A stretch of DNA of 64,000 bases from an uncultured Gemmatimonadota bacterium (lineage in GTDB: Bacteria > JAAXHH01). Made by a program: the position numbers and the translations under genes. The stretch is taken from NCBI GenBank assembly GCA_951812955.1, contig OX638340.1, positions 3,584,001 to 3,648,000 of the forward strand, read 5' to 3'. The notes under the pieces were generated by a model. It saw only the letters and a program-made list of their open reading frames with translations. It was not told where the DNA came from and searched no databases. Below are positions 14,843 to 54,227 of the stretch, in pieces. Numbering within the stretch: the first letter of the stretch is position 1; the number at the start of each line of letters is the position of its first letter.

Positions 14843-16768
14843 ATGATCGAACAAACTAAGGCGCAAACCCTCGCCCGCGAGCGTGGGACCATATACAAGA
14901 AATCGGACGGAAAGGCCGTTCGAATCGCCCTGGTGTATCCCAATACCTACTACCTGGGCATGTCGAATCTGGGTTTTCAGACCATCTACCGGCACCTGAA
15001 CGAACGGGACGACGTGGTCTGCGAACGGGCCTTTCTCCCGGAACCTTCCGACCTGGAAGTTCTGTCCAAATCCCGCAAGCCGCTGGTTACGCTGGAAACG
15101 GGGCTACCACTCGGTTCGTGCGACATCGTGGCCTTCTCCGTCTCCTTCGAGAACGACTACCCGAACCTGATCCGTATCCTGGAACTCGCCCGCATACCCG
15201 TACTCTCGGCTAACCGGACCCACTACGATCCGGTCGTGCTGATCGGCGGCGCGATTACCTACATCAACCCGGAGCCGCTGGCGGAATTCGCGGACGCGAT
15301 GATCATAGGAGACGGCGAAGAGGCGGCCTACGCCTATATCGACCGCTATATCGAGGACCGGGGCCTGGACCGGGAACGCCACCTCGCCGGCACCATGGCG
15401 CTGGCGGGCATGTATGTCCCGTCCCTGCAGCAGGCCTCAACGGGCGACCTGGAGGGGCCGCCGGCCTCCGGACCGGCCGTGGATTCCGGTTGCGAGGCCG
15501 AGGACGCCAGACCAGCTGCTGATGCCGGACCGGTCGTGGAATCCGGTTGCGAGACCGAGGACGCCAGACCAGCTGCTGATGCCGGACCGGTCGTGGAATC
15601 CGGATGCGAGACCGCTGCGTTCGACGCGGAACCTGCGCCCGCCAGCCGGATCGCCAATGCACCCGCCGGCCGGATCGCCAAGCAGCAGGTGCGCGATTTC
15701 GAGGATTACCCCGCCCATTCCGCCGTCCTCACGCCCGACACCGAGTTTGGCGACATGTTGCTGATCGAGATCTCCCGCGGGTGTCCCCGCCGATGCCGTT
15801 TTTGCGCCGTGAGTTATGTGTATCCCAAATTCCGCGCTTTGAAGCCGGAAACGATACTCGACGTCATCCGTGCAAAAAACGCGACGCTGGCGCGCGACGG
15901 CCAGGAGGGGCTGAAAGCGGTGGGCCTGGTCAGTTCGGCCATGTGCGACTATCCCCACCTGGACGAACTCTGTGCGGGCCTTGAGGAAACGGGGCTTCGC
16001 GTGGGGGTTTCGTCGGTCCGGGTCGACCTGGTCCCTGACAGCCTGCTTCGCCTGATGCTGAAGACAGGGCTGCGAACAATGACCATCGCTCCCGAGGCCG
16101 GTTCGGAACGGCTCCGTAAGGCGATCAACAAGCCCATATCCTCAGAAGAAATCCTGACTGGCGCCCGGAGGATTCTCGAGAAGGGCATCAAGCACCTCAA
16201 GGTGTACTACATGGTCGGCCTGCCGACGGAGACAGACGCCGACGTAGAGGAACTCATCGAAATGACGCGCCAGCTTGCCCGGCTACAGAGGGCGTGCGGG
16301 GAACCGGGCGGGCGGCTGAGGTTGAGCATAAATCCTTTCGTGCCGAAGGCGTTGACGCCCTTCCAGTGGAGTCCCATGGCGTCTCCGCGGGAGGTCAAGC
16401 GCAAGCTGAACCACATCAAGAAATCCCTGCGCGGCACGCCGGGAGTGGACGTCAAGCACGAGAGTCTGAAATCCGCGTATTTCGAGGCCATCCTGTCCCG
16501 CGGCGGCCGGGAACTGAGCGAATTTCTGATGGAAACGGTGCGGCAGGACGGCGACTGGAAACGCGCGGCGGCGGAAACGGAGACGGATATCTCGCGATAT
16601 CTCGGGGACATGGCGGACATGCAGTCGCTTCCCTGGGACTTCATATCCACGGAAAAGGAACATCACCGGCTCCAGTGGGAGTACCGGAAGACTCACAACC
16701 TGCCCCATCGCACCCGGCGGCCGGCAGCTCGCGTCAGCCGGACGGATGCGGGGCACCCCGCGGTCTGA
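14843..16768 (+). CDS. B12-binding-domain radical SAM protein (TIGR03960-like family)
   Basis: N-terminal B12-binding-like block IALVYPNTYYLGMSNLGFQTIY. CX3CX2C radical SAM cluster motif EISRGCPRRCRFCAVSY. Start at ATG 14843 (MIEQTKAQ). Confidence 0.75.
   Translation: MIEQTKAQTLARERGTIYKKSDGKAVRIALVYPNTYYLGMSNLGFQTIYRHLNERDDVVCERAFLPEPSDLEVLSKSRKPLVTLETGLPLGSCDIVAFSVSFENDYPNLIRILELARIPVLSANRTHYDPVVLIGGAITYINPEPLAEFADAMIIGDGEEAAYAYIDRYIEDRGLDRERHLAGTMALAGMYVPSLQQASTGDLEGPPASGPAVDSGCEAEDARPAADAGPVVESGCETEDARPAADAGPVVESGCETAAFDAEPAPASRIANAPAGRIAKQQVRDFEDYPAHSAVLTPDTEFGDMLLIEISRGCPRRCRFCAVSYVYPKFRALKPETILDVIRAKNATLARDGQEGLKAVGLVSSAMCDYPHLDELCAGLEETGLRVGVSSVRVDLVPDSLLRLMLKTGLRTMTIAPEAGSERLRKAINKPISSEEILTGARRILEKGIKHLKVYYMVGLPTETDADVEELIEMTRQLARLQRACGEPGGRLRLSINPFVPKALTPFQWSPMASPREVKRKLNHIKKSLRGTPGVDVKHESLKSAYFEAILSRGGRELSEFLMETVRQDGDWKRAAAETETDISRYLGDMADMQSLPWDFISTEKEHHRLQWEYRKTHNLPHRTRRPAARVSRTDAGHPAV
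15466..15613 (+). repeat. In-frame 57-bp tandem repeat (~2.6 copies) inside the radical SAM CDS
   Basis: Unit gccggaccggtcgtggaatccggttgcgagaccgaggacgccagaccagctgctgat. It encodes PVVESGCETEDARPAADAG x2 plus a degenerate first copy. Confidence 0.7.
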
Positions 16769-16823
16769 CCCCGGGATGGGAAGACGGGGCCAAACTATCA
16801 TTCCAAGTCAGTGGAGGCGAAAG

Positions 16824-17441
16824 ATGCAAAGAACGGGTCTATTCATGGCTGCCGTGTCGCTCGTGTTCTTCATGGTGTCCTGCGGCGAATCGTCCGACCA
16901 ACCTGAACCTAGCGGAGAACCCGCAAACATGTTGATTATCGAAACCACCCTGGGCACCATCAAATGCGAGTTGTATCCCGACAAAACGCCGATGACCGTG
17001 GACGTCATTTCCAGCCTGGCCGAAGGCACGCGGGAGTGGACCCATCCGGTAACCGGGCAGATCATGAACGGGGTTCCTTACTACGACGGCGTGATCTTCC
17101 ACCGGGTCATTCCCGATTTCATGATCCAGACCGGGGATCCGGCCGGAACGGGCATGGGCAGTCCCGGGTTCGTATTCGATGATGAGTTGAACGAGGAACT
17201 GCTCTTCGACCAGCCCGGCCGCCTGGCCATGGCGCACCGCGGTCCCAATACCAACGGCGGACAGATCTTCATCACGGTTGCGCCCACGCCCCATCTCAAC
17301 ATGGTTCATACCATCTTCGGCCAGGTCGTGGAGGGACAGGAAGTGGCCGACGCCATCTCAATGGTGCCCGCGGACCAATCCCGGCCGCGCGAGGAGGTCA
17401 GCATCACCAAAGTGATCGTGGTCAGAGGGGAGGGCGAGTAG
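16824..17441 (+). CDS. Peptidyl-prolyl cis-trans isomerase, cyclophilin type (lipoprotein)
   Basis: GGAGG 16812-16816. Signal plus lipobox FFMVSCGES. Cyclophilin blocks FHRVIPDFMIQTGDP and LAMAHRGPNTNGGQIFI. Confidence 0.8.
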   Translation: MQRTGLFMAAVSLVFFMVSCGESSDQPEPSGEPANMLIIETTLGTIKCELYPDKTPMTVDVISSLAEGTREWTHPVTGQIMNGVPYYDGVIFHRVIPDFMIQTGDPAGTGMGSPGFVFDDELNEELLFDQPGRLAMAHRGPNTNGGQIFITVAPTPHLNMVHTIFGQVVEGQEVADAISMVPADQSRPREEVSITKVIVVRGEGE

Positions 17442-33182: not shown

Positions 33183-33653
33183 ATGGAAGGCGGCGGCAGC
33201 GAAGGCTCCTGGCTCAACACGCTCATGGGACAGAACGTTCGGGTTATGACGCCGGGATCCGCCACGGAGGATCGCGTGACGGTCATCGAGGCCGTCGAGC
33301 CGCCCCACAGCTCGCCGCCCGTCTTCACCCGCCACGCCTTCATCGAGATGTTCCTGGTCGTCAGAGGTGCCCTGACGTTTCAGTTTCTACACGAAAGCGC
33401 CTTTGTGATCGAAGCTGGCCAGATGGTGACCGTACCCGGCTACCGGCCCCATTCCTTCTGGAACGAGGGGGACGACCCGGCGGCGGTCATGCTGATCTGC
33501 ACGCCCGCGGGGTTGGACCGGTTCTTCGAGGCTTCCGATCGGCTGCTTCGGCGCATGCCGCCGGACACGACCGATCCCGATGAGTTGAAAGCGGAGATGG
33601 CACGCCTTCGGAAGGAGTTCGGGCTGGAACACGTGGCGCCGGCGCCGCGGTGA
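33183..33653 (+). CDS. Cupin domain protein
   Basis: Small beta-barrel cupin-like core (FIEMFLVVRGALTFQF...GQMVTVPGYRPHSFWN). 156 aa. Confidence 0.5.
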   Translation: MEGGGSEGSWLNTLMGQNVRVMTPGSATEDRVTVIEAVEPPHSSPPVFTRHAFIEMFLVVRGALTFQFLHESAFVIEAGQMVTVPGYRPHSFWNEGDDPAAVMLICTPAGLDRFFEASDRLLRRMPPDTTDPDELKAEMARLRKEFGLEHVAPAPR

Positions 33654-33968
33654 GGCTTGATTGTCTTAAGGAGGTAACGCTGTCGTTCAGATATACGTAA
33701 CTTCCCGAAAAGAACGTTACGGTGTCGACGAAACACCGTGGAATAGCACACGATTGAAGGATTTGATGTATCCTATAAACTGAGTTGACCCCGTTTAGTA
33801 CGTATGAATTTTTGTACAACGAGGAGTGTTCGACACAACTCCAAGAAATGTGAATCTGTCTACAAACTGGTAATCTTGGTTTTATGTGCACCGGGTAAAG
33901 TCAGTCCGCGTGGGTATGACAGCGTTTATCGGAAAGCTCGGTCGTATGAGGATCAAGGAGTTGGCGTG

Positions 33969-34394
33969 ATGGCGAGAGTCCGAAAGTCAACTGCAATTGA
34001 ACGATTGCAGAGGTTGGTTGATGAGGCTTCAGAGCTGGATATGGAGGATGATAGCTCTCAGGAAGTTCAAAAATGGATACAGGACGTTTATACCGCTTTT
34101 ATCAACATATTCGGTGAGGATAGTTCTCAGTTTTCACGACTTCCGCAAAGTCACAAAACAACCCCAAGTGGGGTTCGTGAATACCTGAGATCAATGGTTT
34201 CCTGCGTCGCGTCTAGTCTCGATGAGATCAAGTACTTTCGGGAGGATGAAACAGAAACTGTGAAACAACCCTCAGAACAGGGTGACTTAAAAGCACCAGA
34301 TAAGGATTGTTACGACCAGGGATCGGCGACAAAAAAGTCTTTGTCGTTCATGGTCACGACGAGGCCGTCCTGCAGGCGGTTGCGAGATTTCTAG
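33969..34394 (+). CDS. Hypothetical acidic protein (possibly the N-terminal part of a frameshifted TIR-like gene)
   Basis: AAGGAG 33955-33960, ATG 33969. Lower-GC island. Its 3' end overlaps the next ORF by 88 nt, and an A6 run at 34323-34328 separates the two frames. Confidence 0.35.
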   Translation: MARVRKSTAIERLQRLVDEASELDMEDDSSQEVQKWIQDVYTAFINIFGEDSSQFSRLPQSHKTTPSGVREYLRSMVSCVASSLDEIKYFREDETETVKQPSEQGDLKAPDKDCYDQGSATKKSLSFMVTTRPSCRRLRDF

Positions 34395-34768
34395 AAAAGC
34401 TGAAACTCGAACCAGTAATCCTGCACGAACAGGCGAATCAAGGCCGCACGATCATAGAGAAATTTGAGGATCATTCGGATGCGAGTTTTGCCGTGGTTCT
34501 GCTGACACCTGACGACATAGGCGCGGCCGTTACGGATAAGGCCGATCTACGGCACCGAGCTCGTCAGAACGTAATTCTCGAACTCGGATTCTTCATTGGG
34601 AAGTTGGGTCGCAACAGGGTCTGTGCTCTGAAATCGCGTTGTGTCGAAAATCCGTCGGACGTCGATGGGATGGTCTATATCAACCTCGACGAGCCAGATG
34701 CATGGAAGACCGGACTCGTGCGGGAGTTAATGGCAGCTGGTTTCGCCATCGACGCTAACTGGGTTTAG
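34307..34768 (+). CDS. TIR-like (COG4271/CAP12-type) nucleotide-binding domain protein
   Basis: KKVFVVHGHDEAVLQAVARFLEKLKLEPVIL...FAVVLLTPDDIG...RARQNVILELGFFIGKLGRNRV matches the TIR-like COG4271 pattern. Only TTG 34307 is available as a start in this frame. Confidence 0.5.
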   Translation: MLRPGIGDKKVFVVHGHDEAVLQAVARFLEKLKLEPVILHEQANQGRTIIEKFEDHSDASFAVVLLTPDDIGAAVTDKADLRHRARQNVILELGFFIGKLGRNRVCALKSRCVENPSDVDGMVYINLDEPDAWKTGLVRELMAAGFAIDANWV

Positions 34769-34773
34769 CAGCC

Positions 34774-35079
34774 ATGAACGCACAGTTGTCGATTTCCAAA
34801 ACCGAATTGTCAGCCTATTGTAAAAATCATGGCATCCGACGATTAGCAATTTTCGGATCGGTGCTCCGGCCAGATTTTGGCCCGGAGAGCGATATCGACG
34901 TACTGGTCGAGTTCGCACCGAGTCACACTCCCGGTCTGCTGGGCATGGCCGGATTGGAGATTGAACTATCCGAATTGTTTGGCGGTCGGAAGGTGGACCT
35001 GCGGACTCCTGAGGAATTGAGTCGTTATTTTCGACAGAAGGTCATTGACACGGCAGAAGTTCTATATGTGCAGGGATGA
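34774..35079 (+). CDS. mntA: MntA-type nucleotidyltransferase (antitoxin of HepT/MNT toxin-antitoxin pairs)
   Basis: Minimal nucleotidyltransferase motif FGSVLRPDFGPESDIDVLVEF. 101 aa. Confidence 0.7.
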   Translation: MNAQLSISKTELSAYCKNHGIRRLAIFGSVLRPDFGPESDIDVLVEFAPSHTPGLLGMAGLEIELSELFGGRKVDLRTPEELSRYFRQKVIDTAEVLYVQG

Positions 35080-35182
35080 CGAAATCCCATTACAGCACAT
35101 GTTGGACGCCGAGCGGGAGGCAGTGTGTTTTTCACGAGGACACAGTTGGTTGCAGCCGCTAAGTCAAGCCTACCATATCGCG
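35066..35182 (+). pseudogene. hepT: HepT (DUF86) toxin remnant, truncated after 38 codons
   Basis: MCRDDEIPLQHMLDAEREAVCFSRGHSW... matches the HepT N-terminal block, then TAG at 35180-35182. Overlaps the mntA 3' end by 14 nt, as in intact MNT-HepT pairs. Confidence 0.45.
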
Positions 35183-35550
35183 CGTGAATAGTAATCCAGG
35201 ATGGTGGTGTCCGAAGTCACGAGCAGGCATTTGTTCAATTTGGCCGTGGCCACGATCGTGCGGTCGACAGGATCCCGGTGATCCCAGTCCAGTTCGAGAT
35301 TCCCAATCCATGTCCGCACGTCCACTGGACGTACTTCAATCCGTTCGGTCCGTTCCAGATTTTATGCGAAGTCCTGAATGGACAGGGGCAACACAAGATC
35401 GGCCTTTTTCACCCTAACGCCGATCTCCCAGATCGAGATCGAACTGATGCACACGCGGTCGGCTTGTGTAATCGTCTGGTCGTCGATTTTGGACAGGCGT
35501 TCGGGATCCAGTGTCCAGAAAACAAGCGCGGACGTATCCAGTACGACCAT
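35161..35550 (-). pseudogene. VapC-like PIN-domain toxin interrupted by an in-frame TAA
   Basis: MVVLDTSALV...SIWEIGVRVKK...DFA, then TAA (35362-35364), then the same frame continues ...DHRDPVDRTIVATAKLNKCLLVTSDTTILDYYSRAIW* carrying the remaining PIN acidic residues. Confidence 0.6.
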
Positions 35551-35780
35551 TACGTTTCATCCCATTCGTCGATTGTCGGTGTGTCGATGTCTCCATGATA
35601 GACGATCTTTCCCCGCAGTCCATCGAAGATCCTGTCAACCGATTGCTTTGGCTTTATGGGTTTTACACTGAGAACTGGACTCCGGTTATGCGTTACGATC
35701 AGATCCTCGCCCGATTCCTCGATTTCTCGAAATACCCGAAGCATATTGGCCTTCAGCTTGCTCTTCGATTTGAACAGCAT
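35550..35780 (-). CDS. Phd/YefM-family antitoxin
   Basis: KLKANMLRVFREIEESGEDLIVTHNRSPVLSVKP matches the Phd/YefM N-terminal fold pattern. The stop shares a nucleotide with the vapC start (TGATG). Confidence 0.55.
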   Translation of the reverse strand: MLFKSKSKLKANMLRVFREIEESGEDLIVTHNRSPVLSVKPIKPKQSVDRIFDGLRGKIVYHGDIDTPTIDEWDET

Positions 35781-35950
35781 ATGGACTCCAGTCTGTTTAG
35801 TAAAAGACTATGGGCATGACCCTGGTTATATTCGAAGGATTTCCTATGAACCGTCAAGGATTTATCTCATTCTCGGCAACTTAGAAGTCGGATTCCGTGC
35901 GACTATTCCGACTGTATAGGTATGATGTTCAATTCAATGTGTAAGACAGG

Positions 35951-35979
35951 TTGACAATCGACGTCCCGACGTCTAATAT
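35951..35979 (+). promoter_or_regulatory. Near-consensus sigma70-type promoter (TTGACA-N17-TAATAT) with tandem GACGTC palindromes in the spacer; predicted leaderless start for the MTase gene
   Basis: TTGACA 35951-35956, spacer atcGACGTCccGACGTC, TAATAT 35974-35979, ATG 35986. No RBS. Confidence 0.4.
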
Positions 35980-35985
35980 TAAAAT

Positions 35986-37122
35986 ATGGCCACTAACACC
36001 GAAAGATACGCTCCTGGTCGAGTACGAGATGCGATAATCCGGGTGATGAGACTAACGACAGAAGGTTTGTCTGCTAAACAGATCGCAGCGAGAGTTGCAA
36101 AGATAGAGGGCCACATGCCTGAGTCCTCGATCAGGTCTTATCTTCGTCTGAACACTCCAGAGACATTTGTTCGTGAAAGGAGGGGGGTATACCGCCTTAA
36201 GGTAGATCATGACAGCAGTCTGCAACGAACGATGTTCAGGAGTCCACCTTGGCAGGAACCCTTCAAGTTTGGATCGGCTACATTGTTTCATAGTGAATGT
36301 TTGGATTGGCTGGACGCAAGAGATGACCAATCAATCCACGCGATAGTTACCGATCCACCTTACGGTCTGCAGGAATACACAGCGAAAGAGCAGACGAAAC
36401 TCCGAAATAGGAAGGGGGGGATCTGGAGGATTCCTCCTGCATTTGATGGCCACGTTCGTTCGCCGTTACCAAGATTCACTACTTTAACCGATGAACAAAA
36501 ACTTTATCTTCGGGAGTTTTTCTATATCTGGTCTCGTCTACTGATCCCCAAGTTGGTACCTGGCGCCAACGTGGTCGTTGCCTCCAATCCACTACTCTCC
36601 CACATTGTCGCCGGCGCTATAGCGGATTCGGGGCTTGAAAGACGCGGCGACATCGTCAGGCTTGTTATGACTATGCGTGGCGGTGATCGGCCAAAAGCGG
36701 CACATGATGAATTCAAGGACGTCAGTGTGCTCCCCAGATCAATGTGGGAGCCATGGCTGATATTCCGTAGGCCTGTGGAGGGAAGAGTACAGGACAACCT
36801 CAGAAAATGGAAAACGGGAGGGTTTCGACGGCCGACTGGACTCAAGCCATTCGGAGATGTTATTCAATCTTCCCCGACCAGAAAAAATGAGAAGGCGATA
36901 GCACCTCACCCCAGCCTTAAGCCACAATCCTTCTTACGACGCCTCGTGAGGGGTGTTCTTCCACTAGGTGAGGGTATAGTTGTCGATCCCTTTGCCGGCG
37001 CTGGCTCTACTCTCGCGGCCGCTGAAGCAGTTGGGTACGAGTCAATCGGAATAGAAAAGGATTCTCTGTACTTCAATATGGCCAAGGAAGCACTACAGCC
37101 ACTAGCCGAGCTCGAAGTGTAG
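35986..37122 (+). CDS. Beta-class DNA methyltransferase (N6A/N4C type) with N-terminal HTH domain
   Basis: Motif IV TDPPYG upstream of motif I VVDPFAGAGST (beta-class order). N-terminal ~80 aa HTH-like (LSAKQIAARVAKIEGHMPESSIRSYL). Lower-GC island. Confidence 0.8.
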   Translation: MATNTERYAPGRVRDAIIRVMRLTTEGLSAKQIAARVAKIEGHMPESSIRSYLRLNTPETFVRERRGVYRLKVDHDSSLQRTMFRSPPWQEPFKFGSATLFHSECLDWLDARDDQSIHAIVTDPPYGLQEYTAKEQTKLRNRKGGIWRIPPAFDGHVRSPLPRFTTLTDEQKLYLREFFYIWSRLLIPKLVPGANVVVASNPLLSHIVAGAIADSGLERRGDIVRLVMTMRGGDRPKAAHDEFKDVSVLPRSMWEPWLIFRRPVEGRVQDNLRKWKTGGFRRPTGLKPFGDVIQSSPTRKNEKAIAPHPSLKPQSFLRRLVRGVLPLGEGIVVDPFAGAGSTLAAAEAVGYESIGIEKDSLYFNMAKEALQPLAELEV

Positions 37123-37141
37123 GGACTGAAGGAATCCTCAA

Positions 37142-37672
37142 TTACCTGTCTAGGTAAATCCAGTTCTCGCGAAGTTTACTCACGCCAAAGCGGTCAAGTG
37201 TGGCAGTTCGTGTGCCGAGTTCCCCTCTCGGATTGCGTCTAAAGTCTTCGATGGTTACCCTAGATAGGTAGACTTCCCTAAACGTCATTGGAAGTCTTGA
37301 TGAAGAGGGTTCGGTTTTGTTATCGACCTCGTATACAAATACACACATCCACTGGTCGCGCGCGCCATGTGTATCGACCGCACCGCCTTTTTTCTTCGTG
37401 GTTTTGATTTCAAGACCCTGATCTCCCGACTTAACGGAGTTTTCTGCGTAAACTCCCTGAACGAGAAGGTCAGGATGGCCATTGAAGTAGTTGTTTTCAG
37501 TAAGCACCCTTGAATGTTTAGCCAGACTGGCCGTCAGCATGTCCGATAGCACACCAGACATGATAGCGGGTCTCAACATATCGTCAAGCCGTTCCAGTCC
37601 GCGGTCTACCAGATGAGAATTGACATCGTGGAAGAAATCATAAACGTCCTGCATTGCCGACTCGAAATCCAT
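37142..37672 (-). CDS. Putative type II restriction endonuclease (PD-(D/E)xK)
   Basis: Convergent with the MTase, 19 bp tail-to-tail. GHPDLLVQGVYAENSVKSGDQGLEIKT gives PD...EIK spacing. Low GC with a very AT-rich upstream region. Confidence 0.45.
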   Translation of the reverse strand: MDFESAMQDVYDFFHDVNSHLVDRGLERLDDMLRPAIMSGVLSDMLTASLAKHSRVLTENNYFNGHPDLLVQGVYAENSVKSGDQGLEIKTTKKKGGAVDTHGARDQWMCVFVYEVDNKTEPSSSRLPMTFREVYLSRVTIEDFRRNPRGELGTRTATLDRFGVSKLRENWIYLDR

Positions 37673-37864
37673 AATGCGGAGCTGATATGGTAAAGTCGAG
37701 TCAGGATTGAATGATTCTCTTACTACGACATTTCTGGATTGTTTGATCCGTTCGTCTCCTTCATGTTATCTGAATGCATGTTTCAACAAAATGTGATTTA
37801 CTGTGAATTTGTAAACCACTACCTACAATATCATGACCTAGAATCTCATGAAAGTAAAATCAAT

Positions 37865-39019
37865 CTATTCCTCCACGGCCCGCAGATCCAGCGCCAGGTC
37901 GCGGAAGCTCCGCACGCGGTGTAGGGTGACCAGGTTGGTGTCGTGCTGGTTCTTGCCGCCGCGCGCGGTGCGGGCGACGACGAGTAGATCGTCTCCGGAG
38001 ATGACCTGCGAGGCGTAGCTGAAGGACTCCATAATGCTCCTGCTCATGGCCACGCATCCGGCCTGGAACCAGTTGAGGGCGTCCATGCTGTACATAAGCA
38101 TTAGGATACGCCGCTCGTTTCCCGGCGGTCCGCTGAAACCGATTCGCCGAAGGGGTTCCCGGTCCTGCCACGGGTTCGTGGACAGGGTCACCGTGGTCCA
38201 GTAGAGACCGCCTTTATCGTCGTGGACGATCTGAAACTTGCACTGGGCGCCCGGCATGGGGTGGAACTGGAGGAAACGGTAGTCGAGGTTCCGACCGTCG
38301 TCCTCGACCCGTCCGATTGATGCCAGGCTCGACGTCGTGTGGCCATCGACGATCGTGCGCATGACCATCCGGATCTCGCCGTCCACCAGCACGATGTTGC
38401 CCTCCAGGAAGCTGTCGGCCGGCACCTTGTCCTTCAGGCTTTCGGGATATTTCCGCTGCGAGAGCACATCGGGGATACCAGGAAACCGGACGTGATTGGA
38501 CATGCGCCAGGCCGCCGGATCCAGGAGGTCTCGCGCCAGGTCGCCGGCCACCACCAGCGACTTCCAGTCGAAACGGCTGGGCGCGTCGCAGGTCTCGAAG
38601 GCGCGGTAGGCATGCCCGTTGTGGATCAATACCGGCGTCGGTGCGCAGTGGTGCTTCCCTTCGAAGAGCGTGACCGGCCCTTCCCAGGTGAAGCCGCCGT
38701 CCCGGGAGCGGCCGATGACGATGTCCCGGCTTTTGCGCTTGTTTCCGATGAGATAGGCGTCGTCCCCGTAGGCCCAGACGGTCGCCCAGATGAAATCCTG
38801 GCACGACGCGAGGGTCCACGTTGCGCCGTCGTCGTCACTGACCAGTACCTCGGTCTGATCCGGCACGGATTCCTTGAGCGGACTGGGACGGAACCATTCG
38901 TAACTGGCCAGCAGGCGTCCCGAGCGCATCCGCGCGATCGACGGTGAACCGGCGTATACGTTCTCCGGGTCGGGTGACGAGGCCAGTACCTGGTAGTCTT
39001 TGGCGAGCATTCGATTCAT
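37865..39019 (-). CDS. BNR/Asp-box repeat glycoside hydrolase (sialidase-like)
   Basis: Asp-box motifs SDDDGATW and SRDGGFTW. 384 aa. Confidence 0.7.
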   Translation of the reverse strand: MNRMLAKDYQVLASSPDPENVYAGSPSIARMRSGRLLASYEWFRPSPLKESVPDQTEVLVSDDDGATWTLASCQDFIWATVWAYGDDAYLIGNKRKSRDIVIGRSRDGGFTWEGPVTLFEGKHHCAPTPVLIHNGHAYRAFETCDAPSRFDWKSLVVAGDLARDLLDPAAWRMSNHVRFPGIPDVLSQRKYPESLKDKVPADSFLEGNIVLVDGEIRMVMRTIVDGHTTSSLASIGRVEDDGRNLDYRFLQFHPMPGAQCKFQIVHDDKGGLYWTTVTLSTNPWQDREPLRRIGFSGPPGNERRILMLMYSMDALNWFQAGCVAMSRSIMESFSYASQVISGDDLLVVARTARGGKNQHDTNLVTLHRVRSFRDLALDLRAVEE

Positions 39020-52283: not shown

Positions 52284-52452
52284 GAGAGAACGCCTAAACT
52301 GCGGTTGTTTGATAGAAAACCGTCGTCTCGTGTAATGAGGCATACCTTAGAGCTGAAGATCCGTACAGAGATTCCCGGTTCAAGCCGGTTCGCTGTCTCG
52401 CCGTCGACAATATGATTTCGAGAACAGTCGCTGTTCCCCGACTATACTGTCA

Positions 52453-52863
52453 ATGAGCTCAGTACCGGAACCGGATCAAGAGGAAGATCTTATGGGGAAA
52501 ATCATGAATGATTCCGCGAGCGTATCCGTTTTCGAGGTCGTTGGCAACGCTCTTTGCGTTGCTTCCGACGACGGCCAGAGAGTACACGACCGACTTTCGA
52601 CTGCATTGAAGGATAGCCGCCATGTGAATCTTTCTTTTCGCAACGTGACATCGCTTACTTCGGCTTTTCTGAACACCGCGGTCGGCCAATTGTATGGAAC
52701 CTTCAGCGAAGATCATATACGTACGCAGTTGAACATCGAAGAAATGTCCCTGGATGATCTGGTGTTACTCGAGCGTGTGGTCGACACAGCGAAGCAATAC
52801 TTCAAAGACCCTCAAAGATTCGAACAAGCGCTTCGTGAGGAAATGGATGACTATGACGACTGA
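52453..52863 (+). CDS. STAS-like (DUF4325-like) small protein
   Basis: VNLSFRNVTSLTSAFLNTAVGQLYG resembles the STAS-like DUF4325 core. Low-GC islet. Its 3' end overlaps the next gene by 17 nt. Confidence 0.45.
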   Translation: MSSVPEPDQEEDLMGKIMNDSASVSVFEVVGNALCVASDDGQRVHDRLSTALKDSRHVNLSFRNVTSLTSAFLNTAVGQLYGTFSEDHIRTQLNIEEMSLDDLVLLERVVDTAKQYFKDPQRFEQALREEMDDYDD

Positions 52864-53395
52864 TTCCAAGGCGCTCGCGGTGAATGAACACGAATTCAGT
52901 CGTAGAGATAGGTTGTTTCTTGATACTAATATCTGGTTGTATCTATTCGGTCCGCATAAACCCAAGGCAAGAGCGATCGACACGTATTCAAGTGTGCTTA
53001 AGCGGATTCTGGATGCGGGTAGCAGAATCTATATCGACGTTCTGATCGTTTCAGAGTTCATCAACGCATGCGCCAGGTTGAATTGGCATCTTGCAACAAA
53101 CAGGAAAATTGGTTTCAAAGCATTTCGAAATTCGTCATCTTTCAAATCAGTCGCCAGGTCGGTGTCAAGCGACGCCGCGCGGGTTATGTCCCACTGCTTG
53201 CGTGTGGAAAGTGGATTCTCGGACATGGCCGCGACCGAATTGCTCAATGAATTTGTCACCGGAAAATGCGACTTCAACGATCAAGTTATCATAAGACTCT
53301 GTAAAAAAGAAGAACTAACCCTGATTACACACGACGCCGATTTCAAAGGCGCGGGGATTCCGATTTTGACAGCGAACCATCGTCTTCTGAACTAA
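52847..53395 (+). CDS. PIN-domain nuclease
   Basis: LFLDTNIWLY...SEF...FNDQ...ITHDADF gives the four PIN acidic positions. Intact, 182 aa. Confidence 0.6.
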   Translation: MTMTTDSKALAVNEHEFSRRDRLFLDTNIWLYLFGPHKPKARAIDTYSSVLKRILDAGSRIYIDVLIVSEFINACARLNWHLATNRKIGFKAFRNSSSFKSVARSVSSDAARVMSHCLRVESGFSDMAATELLNEFVTGKCDFNDQVIIRLCKKEELTLITHDADFKGAGIPILTANHRLLN

Positions 53396-53399
53396 TCCC

Positions 53400-54227
53400 A
53401 TGCCCGCCTACCCCCGCTACCTCACCAAAGCTCAATTGGAGCAGTTCTGGTCCGACGGCTACCTGGTTTTGAAAGGCACGCTGGATCAAGAAGTGGTAGA
53501 AAAAGCCCGCGAATTCCTGCTGGACCTGATCCCGCGGGACCTGGTCATCCCGGACCACTACCACGCGAACCACGGCCGGTTCAAGCCCCACCACCCCGAC
53601 GGGAATGGCAGCTTTTTTGAACCTGCGATGCTGCCCCTGATGCAGAACGAAGCACTTTACGGCGCTGCCGTGGATATACTGGAGACAGAATACATCCGGG
53701 TGTGGGACGGTTCGGCGGGGATAACGCTAAGAAACCGCGCCATGGAAGGACGGCTCCAGAACCTCCACCTCGACGCTGTACCGGGAGGGCCCGAAGACCT
53801 GAATGAGGGGTTCCTTCGCACGGGAATAGGTATCGGCGGATGTTATTACCTGAACAAGGTTGAAGGTGAGGGCGGCGGCATCCACGTGGTTCCCGGCGGG
53901 CCGAACCGGGTGAGGGATATCATGCTTAACGAACCGGACGGTCTGACGCGCAACAACGGCTGGGGTCATATCACCGATTTTTCGTCGTCCATGGAGGTAA
54001 CCGGTGATGCCGGCGATTTCGTGCTGATGCATCACCTGATGCCCCACTCGGCCAGCGCCAATCACAACGCCGCGCCACGGATCGCCCAGTTCACCCGTCT
54101 GCAGGCCCTGACGGACGATGACGCCCGCCTCGCTCCGGGTCCCGACCGACCCCTGGACCCCGCAGCGCTTGGCGCCCTGACACCCCTGGGACGCAAACTG
54201 TTCCGCCTGGCCCCGTGGATCGGGTAA
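53400..54227 (+). CDS. PhyH-family oxygenase
   Basis: N-terminal LTKAQLEQFWSDGYLVLKG motif, HLD HxD. Confidence 0.6.
   Translation: MPAYPRYLTKAQLEQFWSDGYLVLKGTLDQEVVEKAREFLLDLIPRDLVIPDHYHANHGRFKPHHPDGNGSFFEPAMLPLMQNEALYGAAVDILETEYIRVWDGSAGITLRNRAMEGRLQNLHLDAVPGGPEDLNEGFLRTGIGIGGCYYLNKVEGEGGGIHVVPGGPNRVRDIMLNEPDGLTRNNGWGHITDFSSSMEVTGDAGDFVLMHHLMPHSASANHNAAPRIAQFTRLQALTDDDARLAPGPDRPLDPAALGALTPLGRKLFRLAPWIG

Follow-up and report, generated by a model that had tools for sequence, protein, structure and literature searches.

In the genome of an uncultured Gemmatimonadota bacterium (JAAXHH01), a short interval of low G+C content (GC) lies between a cupin-domain gene and a sialidase-like gene and carries defence and toxin-antitoxin genes. 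The DNA analysed here, called the window, is a stretch of 64,000 nt (GenBank assembly GCA_951812955.1, contig OX638340.1, positions 3,584,001-3,648,000 of the forward strand), and the interval occupies about 33.66-37.86 kb of it. From left to right, the interval holds a gene with a TIR domain, the nucleotidyltransferase gene mntA with a remnant of hepT, a broken toxin gene vapC with its phd-like antitoxin gene, and a DNA methyltransferase gene that converges with a putative restriction endonuclease gene. We propose, with a probability of roughly 80%, that the interval is what now fills a core defence hotspot, in which recombination with a common gene pool of lower GC brings modules in, exchanges them and removes them, and in which toxins have been lost one after another. 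In other words, the locus is a long-lived, recombination-driven hotspot carrying a mosaic of modules of differing ages, not one acquired island.

A variable slot between conserved genes

A scan with the neighbouring 1531-residue gene found 20 related loci (cited here by L numbers) in metagenome-assembled genomes labelled Latescibacterota, Gemmatimonadetes or just 'bacterium', and two further lineages (L036 and L037) were added later. By our reading of the isolate names, the members of this clade are sponge and coral symbionts. Both flanks of the slot were found in 17 of the 20 loci, each a GTDB species representative and one of them from the window's own species. The flank order was constant in these 17 species loci and in L036, with the cupin gene and a giant M28/FtsX gene on one side and sialidase-like, Mo-oxidoreductase and amidohydrolase genes on the other. 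In the window, the left anchor is a cupin-domain gene of 156 residues (33183-33653, forward strand; Pfam Cupin_2, E = 3.6e-11), which adjoins the slot in 20 of 20 related loci, and the right anchor is a sialidase-like gene of 384 residues (37865-39019, reverse strand), which is 87-97% identical in 17 related loci. An earlier note, made from the letters of the window alone, had named both flanking genes; the cupin gene was confirmed, and the label of the sialidase-like gene comes from a weak match to solved exo-alpha-sialidases (E = 2e-5), the protein having no Pfam match and an exact look-up of it also returning nothing.

The cargo between these constant flanks varied from one related genome to another. 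The slot was empty (146 bp) in L020, held phd-vapC alone (about 740 bp) in L008, L009, L010, L012, L018 and L026, held phd-vapC and the methyltransferase gene without the endonuclease gene in L017, and held mntA(-hepT) with phd-vapC in L019 and L025. The full layout of the window was found in L016 (same species), L024 and L036. Other cargo filled the slot in L007, L011, L013, L015, L021, L022, L023 and L037, its types being a Schlafen/AlbA_2-HATPase_c_4 protein, a Ppl-like ATPase, HicA, TIR-STAND, a type IIG restriction-methylase fusion and PDC-S06. Across the slot, at least ten module types and one empty site were seen. Among the 18 species representatives with both flanks visible, 15 have the phd-vapC pair at the same position, the window's species being one of them. 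Where both flanks were seen, the slot measured 0.15-6.3 kb, and its GC (47-59%) was lower than that of the flanks (62-66%) in 17 of 17 loci.

The interval 33660-37860 has a GC of 48.9%, compared with 61.6% in the remaining window and 62.5% in the immediate flanks. Taken in 1-kb segments, the mean GC was 50.2% inside (47.3-53.4%) and 61.6% outside (standard deviation 2.7%), which gives z = -4.2. GC at third codon positions (GC3) was 0.43-0.68 in the island genes and 0.79-0.83 in five flank genes, and the tetranucleotide L1 distance of the interval (0.471) made it the strongest outlier of the window (background 0.147, standard deviation 0.020, maximum 0.209). The edges in the GC profile are sharp, at about 33.65 and 37.86 kb, where the cupin gene (33653) and the sialidase-like gene (37865) have their stops. 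Three AT-rich stretches (33660-33960, 35820-35985 and 37673-37860) have a GC of 43.9%, 41.0% and 35.6%. The GC drop claimed by the earlier note over 33660-37860 is therefore borne out by GC, GC3 and tetranucleotide deviation; its host background of about 64% was slightly high, and the third of its AT-rich intergenic stretches is partly coding, as the 5' part of the endonuclease gene probably occupies 37673-37747.

The similarity of the modules did not follow that of the flanks. Between the window and L007, the closest other species, the flanks were 95.8% identical, and identity was 72% for phd-vapC, 75% for the methyltransferase gene and 80% for the endonuclease gene; the synonymous divergence (dS) was 0.15 for a flank gene, 2.6 for the methyltransferase gene and 1.8 for the endonuclease gene. 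Comparison with the more distant L017 and L024 gave the opposite picture, with flanks 85-87% identical, the methyltransferase gene 93-95% and the endonuclease gene 94%, and with dS against L024 of 0.64 for the flank gene, 0.29 for the methyltransferase gene and 0.18 for the endonuclease gene. Across loci, phd-vapC was 72-80% identical and the methyltransferase gene 74-95%. Within the species (window against L016 and L001), the block at about 33800-37860 differed by about 0.4% and the flanks by 3-5%; the switch was sharp at both edges, and divergence returned to about 3% exactly at the right edge of the island. Since the island diverges less than its flanks, the block has a much more recent common ancestor among strains than the surrounding chromosome has, suggesting either that it was transferred recently or that a gene-specific sweep took place. 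Beside the near-identical island, the segment 32900-33770, which takes in the cupin gene and the last (3') part of the giant M28/FtsX gene, was 11-13% divergent from conspecifics, and this hyper-divergence looks like a recombination boundary.

The earlier note had read the interval as one genomic island, inserted recently by a mobile element at the junction of the cupin and sialidase-like genes and then decayed. The sharp compositional edges would fit such an event, and so would the 4.1-kb body that is far less diverged within the species than its flanks, if one recent event had spread the whole block. However, in nearly all related species this slot is filled by some of the same modules, whose divergence varies widely, and in the sister species L007 the alleles of the slot separated long ago (dS above 1.7). 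The window also has no tRNA genes, no integrase or transposase domains (Pfam) and no flanking direct repeats, so that the search for integration scars that the earlier note had suggested came back empty. We therefore consider a single insertion quite improbable. What stands of the earlier claim is the foreign composition and the lateral exchange; the single acquisition gives way to a long-standing, clade-wide variable slot. Conservation in syntenic position, which the earlier note had named beforehand as a refutation of a horizontally acquired island, was found for the phd-vapC part, and the other modules come and go independently. Still less credible is a native, vertically inherited interval with its low GC due to relaxed selection or to a functional bias of small toxin-antitoxin and defence genes, since, although phd-vapC keeps its position in 15 of 18 species representatives and its pairwise identity correlates with flank identity (r = 0.66), module and flank divergence are strongly discordant in both directions, the island is about 10-fold less diverged than its flanks within the species, presence and absence are patchy down to an empty site, and, at the protein level, the restriction-modification (R-M) pair has an identity of 80-85% to copies in contigs that carry the labels of other phyla, and of 67-71% to those on enterobacterial and actinobacterial plasmids.

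The left non-coding end of the insert (33654-33968, 44.8% GC) was examined in an alignment of seven loci. About 230 nt right after the cupin stop (33654-33900) are conserved among loci with differing cargo (the window, L007, L011, L015, L019, L023 and L024), with a core motif TGAGTTGACCCCGTTTAG at 33781-33798. The conserved sequence may serve as a promoter, as a leader or as an anchor for recombination. A structured RNA was considered and rejected, as the consensus fold was weak and both covariation support and an Rfam match were absent. As a recombination site, the left end fared no better: a metagenome scan with the 18-mer found only another copy of the same locus and one short contig, which matches nothing else of the window and was taken as a chance match.

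Effector and toxin genes in the slot

Searches of the interval with the profiles of PADLOC and Pfam returned defence matches, namely PDC-S35, PDC-S09 and MTase_II from PADLOC and TIR, nucleotidyltransferase and PIN domains from Pfam, in agreement with the earlier note that every gene here is related to defence or toxin-antitoxin systems. The first gene (33969-34768, forward strand) is of the PDC-S35 type, with a helical N-terminal domain and a TIR domain of the CAP12/Pycsar type. In the window, the match to the PDC-S35 profile is split over two frames, the C-terminal part covering profile positions 118-260 (E = 3.6e-72) and the N-terminal part positions 4-102 (E = 6e-5), and the TIR domain (Pfam PF10137, 4e-40) lies in the second open reading frame (ORF). 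A 1-nt deletion at 34322-34329 shifts the TIR domain into the -1 frame in the window genome: the window has GCGAC-AAAAAAG where the conspecific sequence is GCGACCAAAAAAG, and with the deletion the window reads GCGACAAAAAAG. The eight other contigs of the same species (L001-L006, L016 and L035) all have the intact gene, which encodes an uninterrupted protein of 266 residues. Thus, the decay of the TIR gene is either private to this genome or an error in it, and the pair of TIR-like ORFs reported by the earlier note is one gene.

In other loci, the PDC-S35 gene is intact in L016, L023, L036 and L037, internally deleted in L015 and frameshifted in L024. The homologue in L024, a different species, needs a -1 shift at 15790-15800, at its own A6 run (AGC AAA AAA TCT); this lesion is independent of the one in the window and lies at the same spot of the gene. 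Two TIR-only ORFs of 148 residues (P0180 and P0182) were considered as further split genes and rejected, as they are intact genes called from an internal Met.

It is unlikely, though worth weighing, that the split TIR gene is not a pseudogene, either because the deletion is an assembly error or because -1 slippage on the heptamer A_AAA_AAG still yields the full protein. The eight conspecific contigs with an intact gene would fit an error, as would the 99.6% identity of the remaining island. For slippage, the zero frame of the window reads ACA AAA AAG, and a -1 shift there gives back exactly the conspecific protein, the deletion having created the in-phase heptamer; the shift needed independently in L024 points the same way. 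However, the deletion is the sole uncompensated coding indel over about 24 kb compared with L016, which makes a generally error-prone assembly unlikely and leaves room for one single error. Furthermore, the A-run is absent from the intact homologues in L023, L036 and L037, and most of the best 120 homologues listed are single ORFs of about 265-271 residues, so that a conserved programmed frameshift is unlikely; programmed -1 frameshifting and phase variation were set aside on these grounds. The homopolymer is also simply the most mutable spot of the TIR gene.

In the type VII system mntA-hepT, MntA adenylylates the RNase HepT. The window has an intact mntA gene for an MNT-type nucleotidyltransferase antitoxin of 101 residues (34774-35079, forward strand), which matches Pfam NTP_transf_2 (PF01909) and Polbeta (PF18765) at about 1e-11 and PADLOC PDC-S09 at 1e-24; its match to NCBIfam MntA_antitoxin (4e-10, 39.5 bits) is under the cut-off of 60. 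The MntA motif GS...DxD can be read in the sequence as FGS...SDIDVLV. Each of the eight lineages with mntA has an intact copy, and the ratio of nonsynonymous to synonymous divergence (dN/dS) between lineages is 0.05-0.32. Of hepT, the window retains the first 25 codons only (35066-35140, forward strand). When the intact HepT of L025 (PF01934, 2e-24) was compared with the window by tblastn, residues 1-25 matched and nothing beyond; a deletion has removed the part that carries the RNase motif, and the reading frame stays open through unrelated sequence as far as 35191. Because hepT is reduced to 25 codons, mntA is an orphan in the window; the earlier note had listed mntA with a hepT remnant. A HEPN RNase with the Rx4HxY motif is absent from the window and present in L015, L023, L024, L025 and L037, the five lineages in which hepT is intact (118-120 residues). 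Elsewhere hepT has been lost in three independent ways, by a 3' deletion in the window, an internal deletion with a stop in L019 and a large internal deletion in L036.

The phd-vapC pair is a type II system with a PIN-domain RNase as its toxin. In the window, vapC (35170-35550, reverse strand, 126 codons) has an in-frame TAA at codon 63 (35362-35364). Both halves match Pfam PIN in the same frame, and codons for the acidic active-site residues remain both before and after the stop, but the window has no intact PIN-domain toxin. The gene is intact in 14 other species, in which the position of codon 63 is a sense codon (Glu or Lys). The stop is common to the conspecific contigs that were translated (L001 and L016), and in L001-L006 the gene was called as two pieces or as a 62-residue fragment. 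Upstream, the phd-like antitoxin gene (35550-35780, reverse strand, 76 residues) is intact, its stop overlapping the vapC start (TAATG). Its Pfam PhdYeFM match is weak (E = 0.046; 13.9 bits against a cut-off of 29.8); a phd-like gene lies upstream of vapC in 15 loci, the position, size and TAATG overlap fit a Phd/YefM-type antitoxin, and dN/dS is 0.07-0.20. The phd/vapB gene and vapC pseudogene of the earlier note thus hold as far as vapC is broken, by one in-frame TAA and no frameshift, with a weak family match for the antitoxin.

Other lineages have vapC lesions of their own. In L021, vapC is a C-terminal stub. In L015 (18141-18433), VapC has the change E42V, which turns the catalytic WEIG motif into WVIG, and the phd gene upstream is largely gone since the methyltransferase gene starts 110 nt away; from the sequence, it seems that the toxin was inactivated no later than the antitoxin was lost. 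A tandem repeat array of about 0.9 kb, open in several frames, adjoins vapC inside the hotspot in L011 (19700-20600).

The methyltransferase and its convergent partner

Between the phd-like gene and the methyltransferase gene lies a divergent promoter region of 41% GC (35781-35985), assigned by composition. A sigma-70-like TTGACA-17-TAATAT at 35951-35979, found by its match to the consensus only, ends 7 nt before the methyltransferase ATG; if this promoter is used, the methyltransferase mRNA would be almost leaderless. The gene that follows (35986-37122, forward strand) encodes a beta-class N6/N4 DNA methyltransferase of 378 residues, with matches to Pfam N6_N4_Mtase (PF01555) at 2e-16 and PADLOC MTase_II at 1.8e-100. 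Its solved relatives include CcrM, MboIIA and RsrI, and both the catalytic motif, DPPY at residues 123-126, and the S-adenosylmethionine-binding motif, FAGAGS near the C-terminus, are present. An extra N-terminal domain of about 100 residues (35986-36290) is conserved in the plasmid homologue described below and has weak, sub-threshold matches only, to the winged-helix/HTH families HARE-HTH and RsmI_C (E = 0.02-0.2); such a domain may bind DNA for autoregulation. The dN/dS of the methyltransferase gene is 0.04-0.08.

Converging on this gene across a gap of 19 nt is the gene for a putative type II restriction endonuclease (37142-37747, reverse strand), which is 176 residues long from the ATG at 37672 or 201 residues from an ATC at 37747-37745. 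The protein has no match in Pfam, NCBIfam or PADLOC, and the PDB gave none either by single sequence or by profile. The residues P67-D68 and E88-x-K90 are invariant in 26 homologues and fall on consecutive strands of a structure model; confidence in the model is low (predicted local distance difference test, pLDDT, of 52), as the alignment is shallow (26 sequences, 78% mean column identity). The top Foldseek matches of this poor model were EcoRV, NaeI, BglI, HincII and SfiI, none of them significant (E at least 0.025) and only suggestive, given the shallow alignment and the pLDDT.

Homologues of the endonuclease candidate number in the thousands, and all 8,000 of the 8,000 scored candidates matched at E <= 0.001. 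The 120 best-scoring homologues are at least 79% identical, and contigs with the labels Chloroflexi and Dehalococcoidia are among them; the proteins of the pair have an identity of 80-85% where the contig label names another phylum. In three unrelated chromosomal neighbourhoods, the small protein was always encoded convergently with an N6_N4 methyltransferase of 364-384 residues. The same convergent pair is on a 4.9-kb ColE1-type mobilisable plasmid of Citrobacter and Klebsiella (pCAV1321-4938), otherwise annotated only with mobilisation genes and a 37-residue hypothetical ORF, and on the Gordonia plasmid pGRS1. Identity to these enterobacterial and actinobacterial copies is 67-71% for the small protein; for the methyltransferase it is 58% along the entire protein, N-terminal domain included. 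The two genes thus travel as a unit, with L017 as the exception. There, the slot methyltransferase (15956-17113) is 97% identical in protein to that of the window and the endonuclease gene is absent, and by its sequence this orphan methyltransferase is a derivative of the same R-M pair. Both genes are under strong purifying selection (dN/dS 0.03-0.16 for the endonuclease candidate). From these features, 35986-37747 is a probable type II R-M pair; the convergent pair named by the earlier note is supported on the methyltransferase side by MTase_II (1.8e-100), and its endonuclease partner is probable, without a profile match. To our knowledge, the pair of methyltransferase and 201-residue protein has no enzyme name or recognition site.

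The start of the endonuclease gene differs between this clade and its relatives elsewhere. Homologues in other phyla and on plasmids are 200-203 residues long and start with ATG or GTG; the plasmid-borne 201-residue protein, labelled 'hypothetical' in RefSeq, starts with ATG, whereas the copies of the window's clade start with ATC. The aligned first codon is ATC in six of the six clade alleles (window, L007, L015, L016, L024 and L036), although dS is saturated in some pairs, and the ATC (37747-37745, reverse strand) follows a purine-rich, Shine-Dalgarno-like AAGGAG (37761-37756) by 8 nt. Downstream of the preceding stop, the first canonical start in the frame is the internal ATG. The 25-codon extension from the ATC to the internal ATG is conserved as protein (dN/dS 0.04-0.48) and aligns with the plasmid proteins from residue 3, which indicates that the extension is translated and implies initiation at AUC. 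We tentatively suggest, at rather less than even odds, an unnamed and unusually conserved restriction-endonuclease family that is translated in this clade from a conserved AUC, throttling the nuclease far below the methyltransferase; that the weak start keeps the nuclease below the methyltransferase is our conjecture.

History of the slot and comparison with known systems

We propose that this clade loads the slot between the conserved cupin and sialidase-like genes with small defence and toxin-antitoxin modules, which would enter and leave via recombination with a shared lower-GC gene pool, with no self-mobile element to carry them. Homologous anchors would probably be provided by the flanks, by the conserved sequence at the left end and by the widespread phd-vapC module. 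Among the modules, the PDC-S35 TIR effector, a candidate system, presumably degrades NAD+ on infection. Toxic partners appear to have been lost serially: hepT by deletion and vapC by a nonsense codon, each in every contig of the species, and the TIR gene, in the window genome alone, by a 1-nt deletion. The antitoxins, like the R-M pair, are intact and under purifying selection. Because the toxic partners of the other modules are broken, the R-M pair is predicted to be the only module likely active in this genome. The orphan antitoxins may have been retained for some purpose, such as neutralising incoming copies, or may simply not have been lost yet. Toxin decay with antitoxin persistence, as read from the genes of the slot, holds across lineages; the earlier note had described it for this interval, and it stands overall, with the decay of the TIR gene being private to this genome or an error in it.

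Several points weigh against this history. The slot of L022 contains an IS256-type transposase-like ORF, identified by eye only, which would mean that mobile elements contribute in some lineages, and neither L022 nor L023 has a sialidase-like gene within 10 kb, so that the slot may be much larger or rearranged there. The base missing from the TIR gene may have been lost through a mistake in assembly, and PDC-S35 is a candidate defence system only, of which our literature search found no mention. The endonuclease is putative, being called from its motif, its gene context and a low-confidence model (pLDDT 52; fold matches at E of at least 0.025). Finally, we infer recombination through homologous anchors from the discordant similarity of modules and flanks; no event was observed.

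Away from the slot, a second and smaller low-GC islet lies at about 52.0-53.4 kb of the window (GC down to 47.7%), between two genes that look PhyH-like by eye. At 52450-53400 it encodes a DUF4325 (STAS-like) protein of 136 residues and an overlapping PIN-domain protein of up to 213 residues, and it is thus probably another toxin-antitoxin-like insert.

The kind of locus described here is already well known, and current ideas are not overturned by it; its newest element is the unnamed endonuclease family with the conserved ATC start. The R-M pair is abundant and unannotated, and moves between phyla and onto clinical small plasmids. The slot also offers a constant position at which new defence genes can be sought in metagenome-assembled genomes. 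The series of toxin loss and antitoxin retention, with hepT lost in three ways and vapC by a nonsense codon, an active-site change and truncation, bears on the idea of orphan antitoxins as anti-addiction devices.

Two of the modules can be compared with characterised systems. The TIR domain belongs to the same subfamily (PF10137) as the effectors CAP12 of CBASS and PycTIR of Pycsar, and the Glu of the NVILELGFF motif is kept. Unlike these effectors, it has no nearby cyclase gene and no nucleotide-sensor domain, but an N-terminal domain of about 120 residues of unassigned type; its NCBIfam Cap12 score is far under the cut-off (36 against 450 bits), and it is filed only as the PADLOC candidate PDC-S35. 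The mntA-hepT module resembles the type VII HepT/MntA system (Yao et al. 2020, PMC7641770) in having an MNT-fold nucleotidyltransferase gene that overlaps the start of a HEPN RNase gene. Relatives of the window keep the full pair with the motif RNRLVHAY, whereas the window has 25 hepT codons and an orphan mntA.

For the slot as a whole, the defence-island hotspots of E. coli (Hochhauser et al. 2023, PMC10121019) share discrete sites between core genes with variable cargo and occupancy. In E. coli, the cargo is almost always on recognisable prophages, integrative and conjugative elements (ICEs), transposons or satellites, and 18 of 41 hotspots are in tRNA loci, whereas the window slot has no such element or tRNA. 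The core defence hotspots cDHS1 and cDHS2 of P. aeruginosa (Johnson et al. 2023, PMC10250203) are closer: the window slot has the constant core flanks, the differing immune systems and the GC below that of the chromosome that mark a core defence hotspot, and like cDHS1 and cDHS2 it is not obviously of one mobile-element family. For those hotspots, scarless transfer through homologous flanks was proposed (PMC10250203). The window slot is far smaller (0.15-6.3 kb, against medians of 6-26 kb in P. aeruginosa; PMC10250203) and holds mostly toxin-antitoxin and single-gene modules, with phd-vapC nearly fixed. The P. aeruginosa hotspots were described within one species, whereas this slot spans the species of an uncultivated clade. 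It appears that the Pseudomonas-type layout of a core defence hotspot also occurs in uncultivated, host-associated bacteria, where it persists across species.

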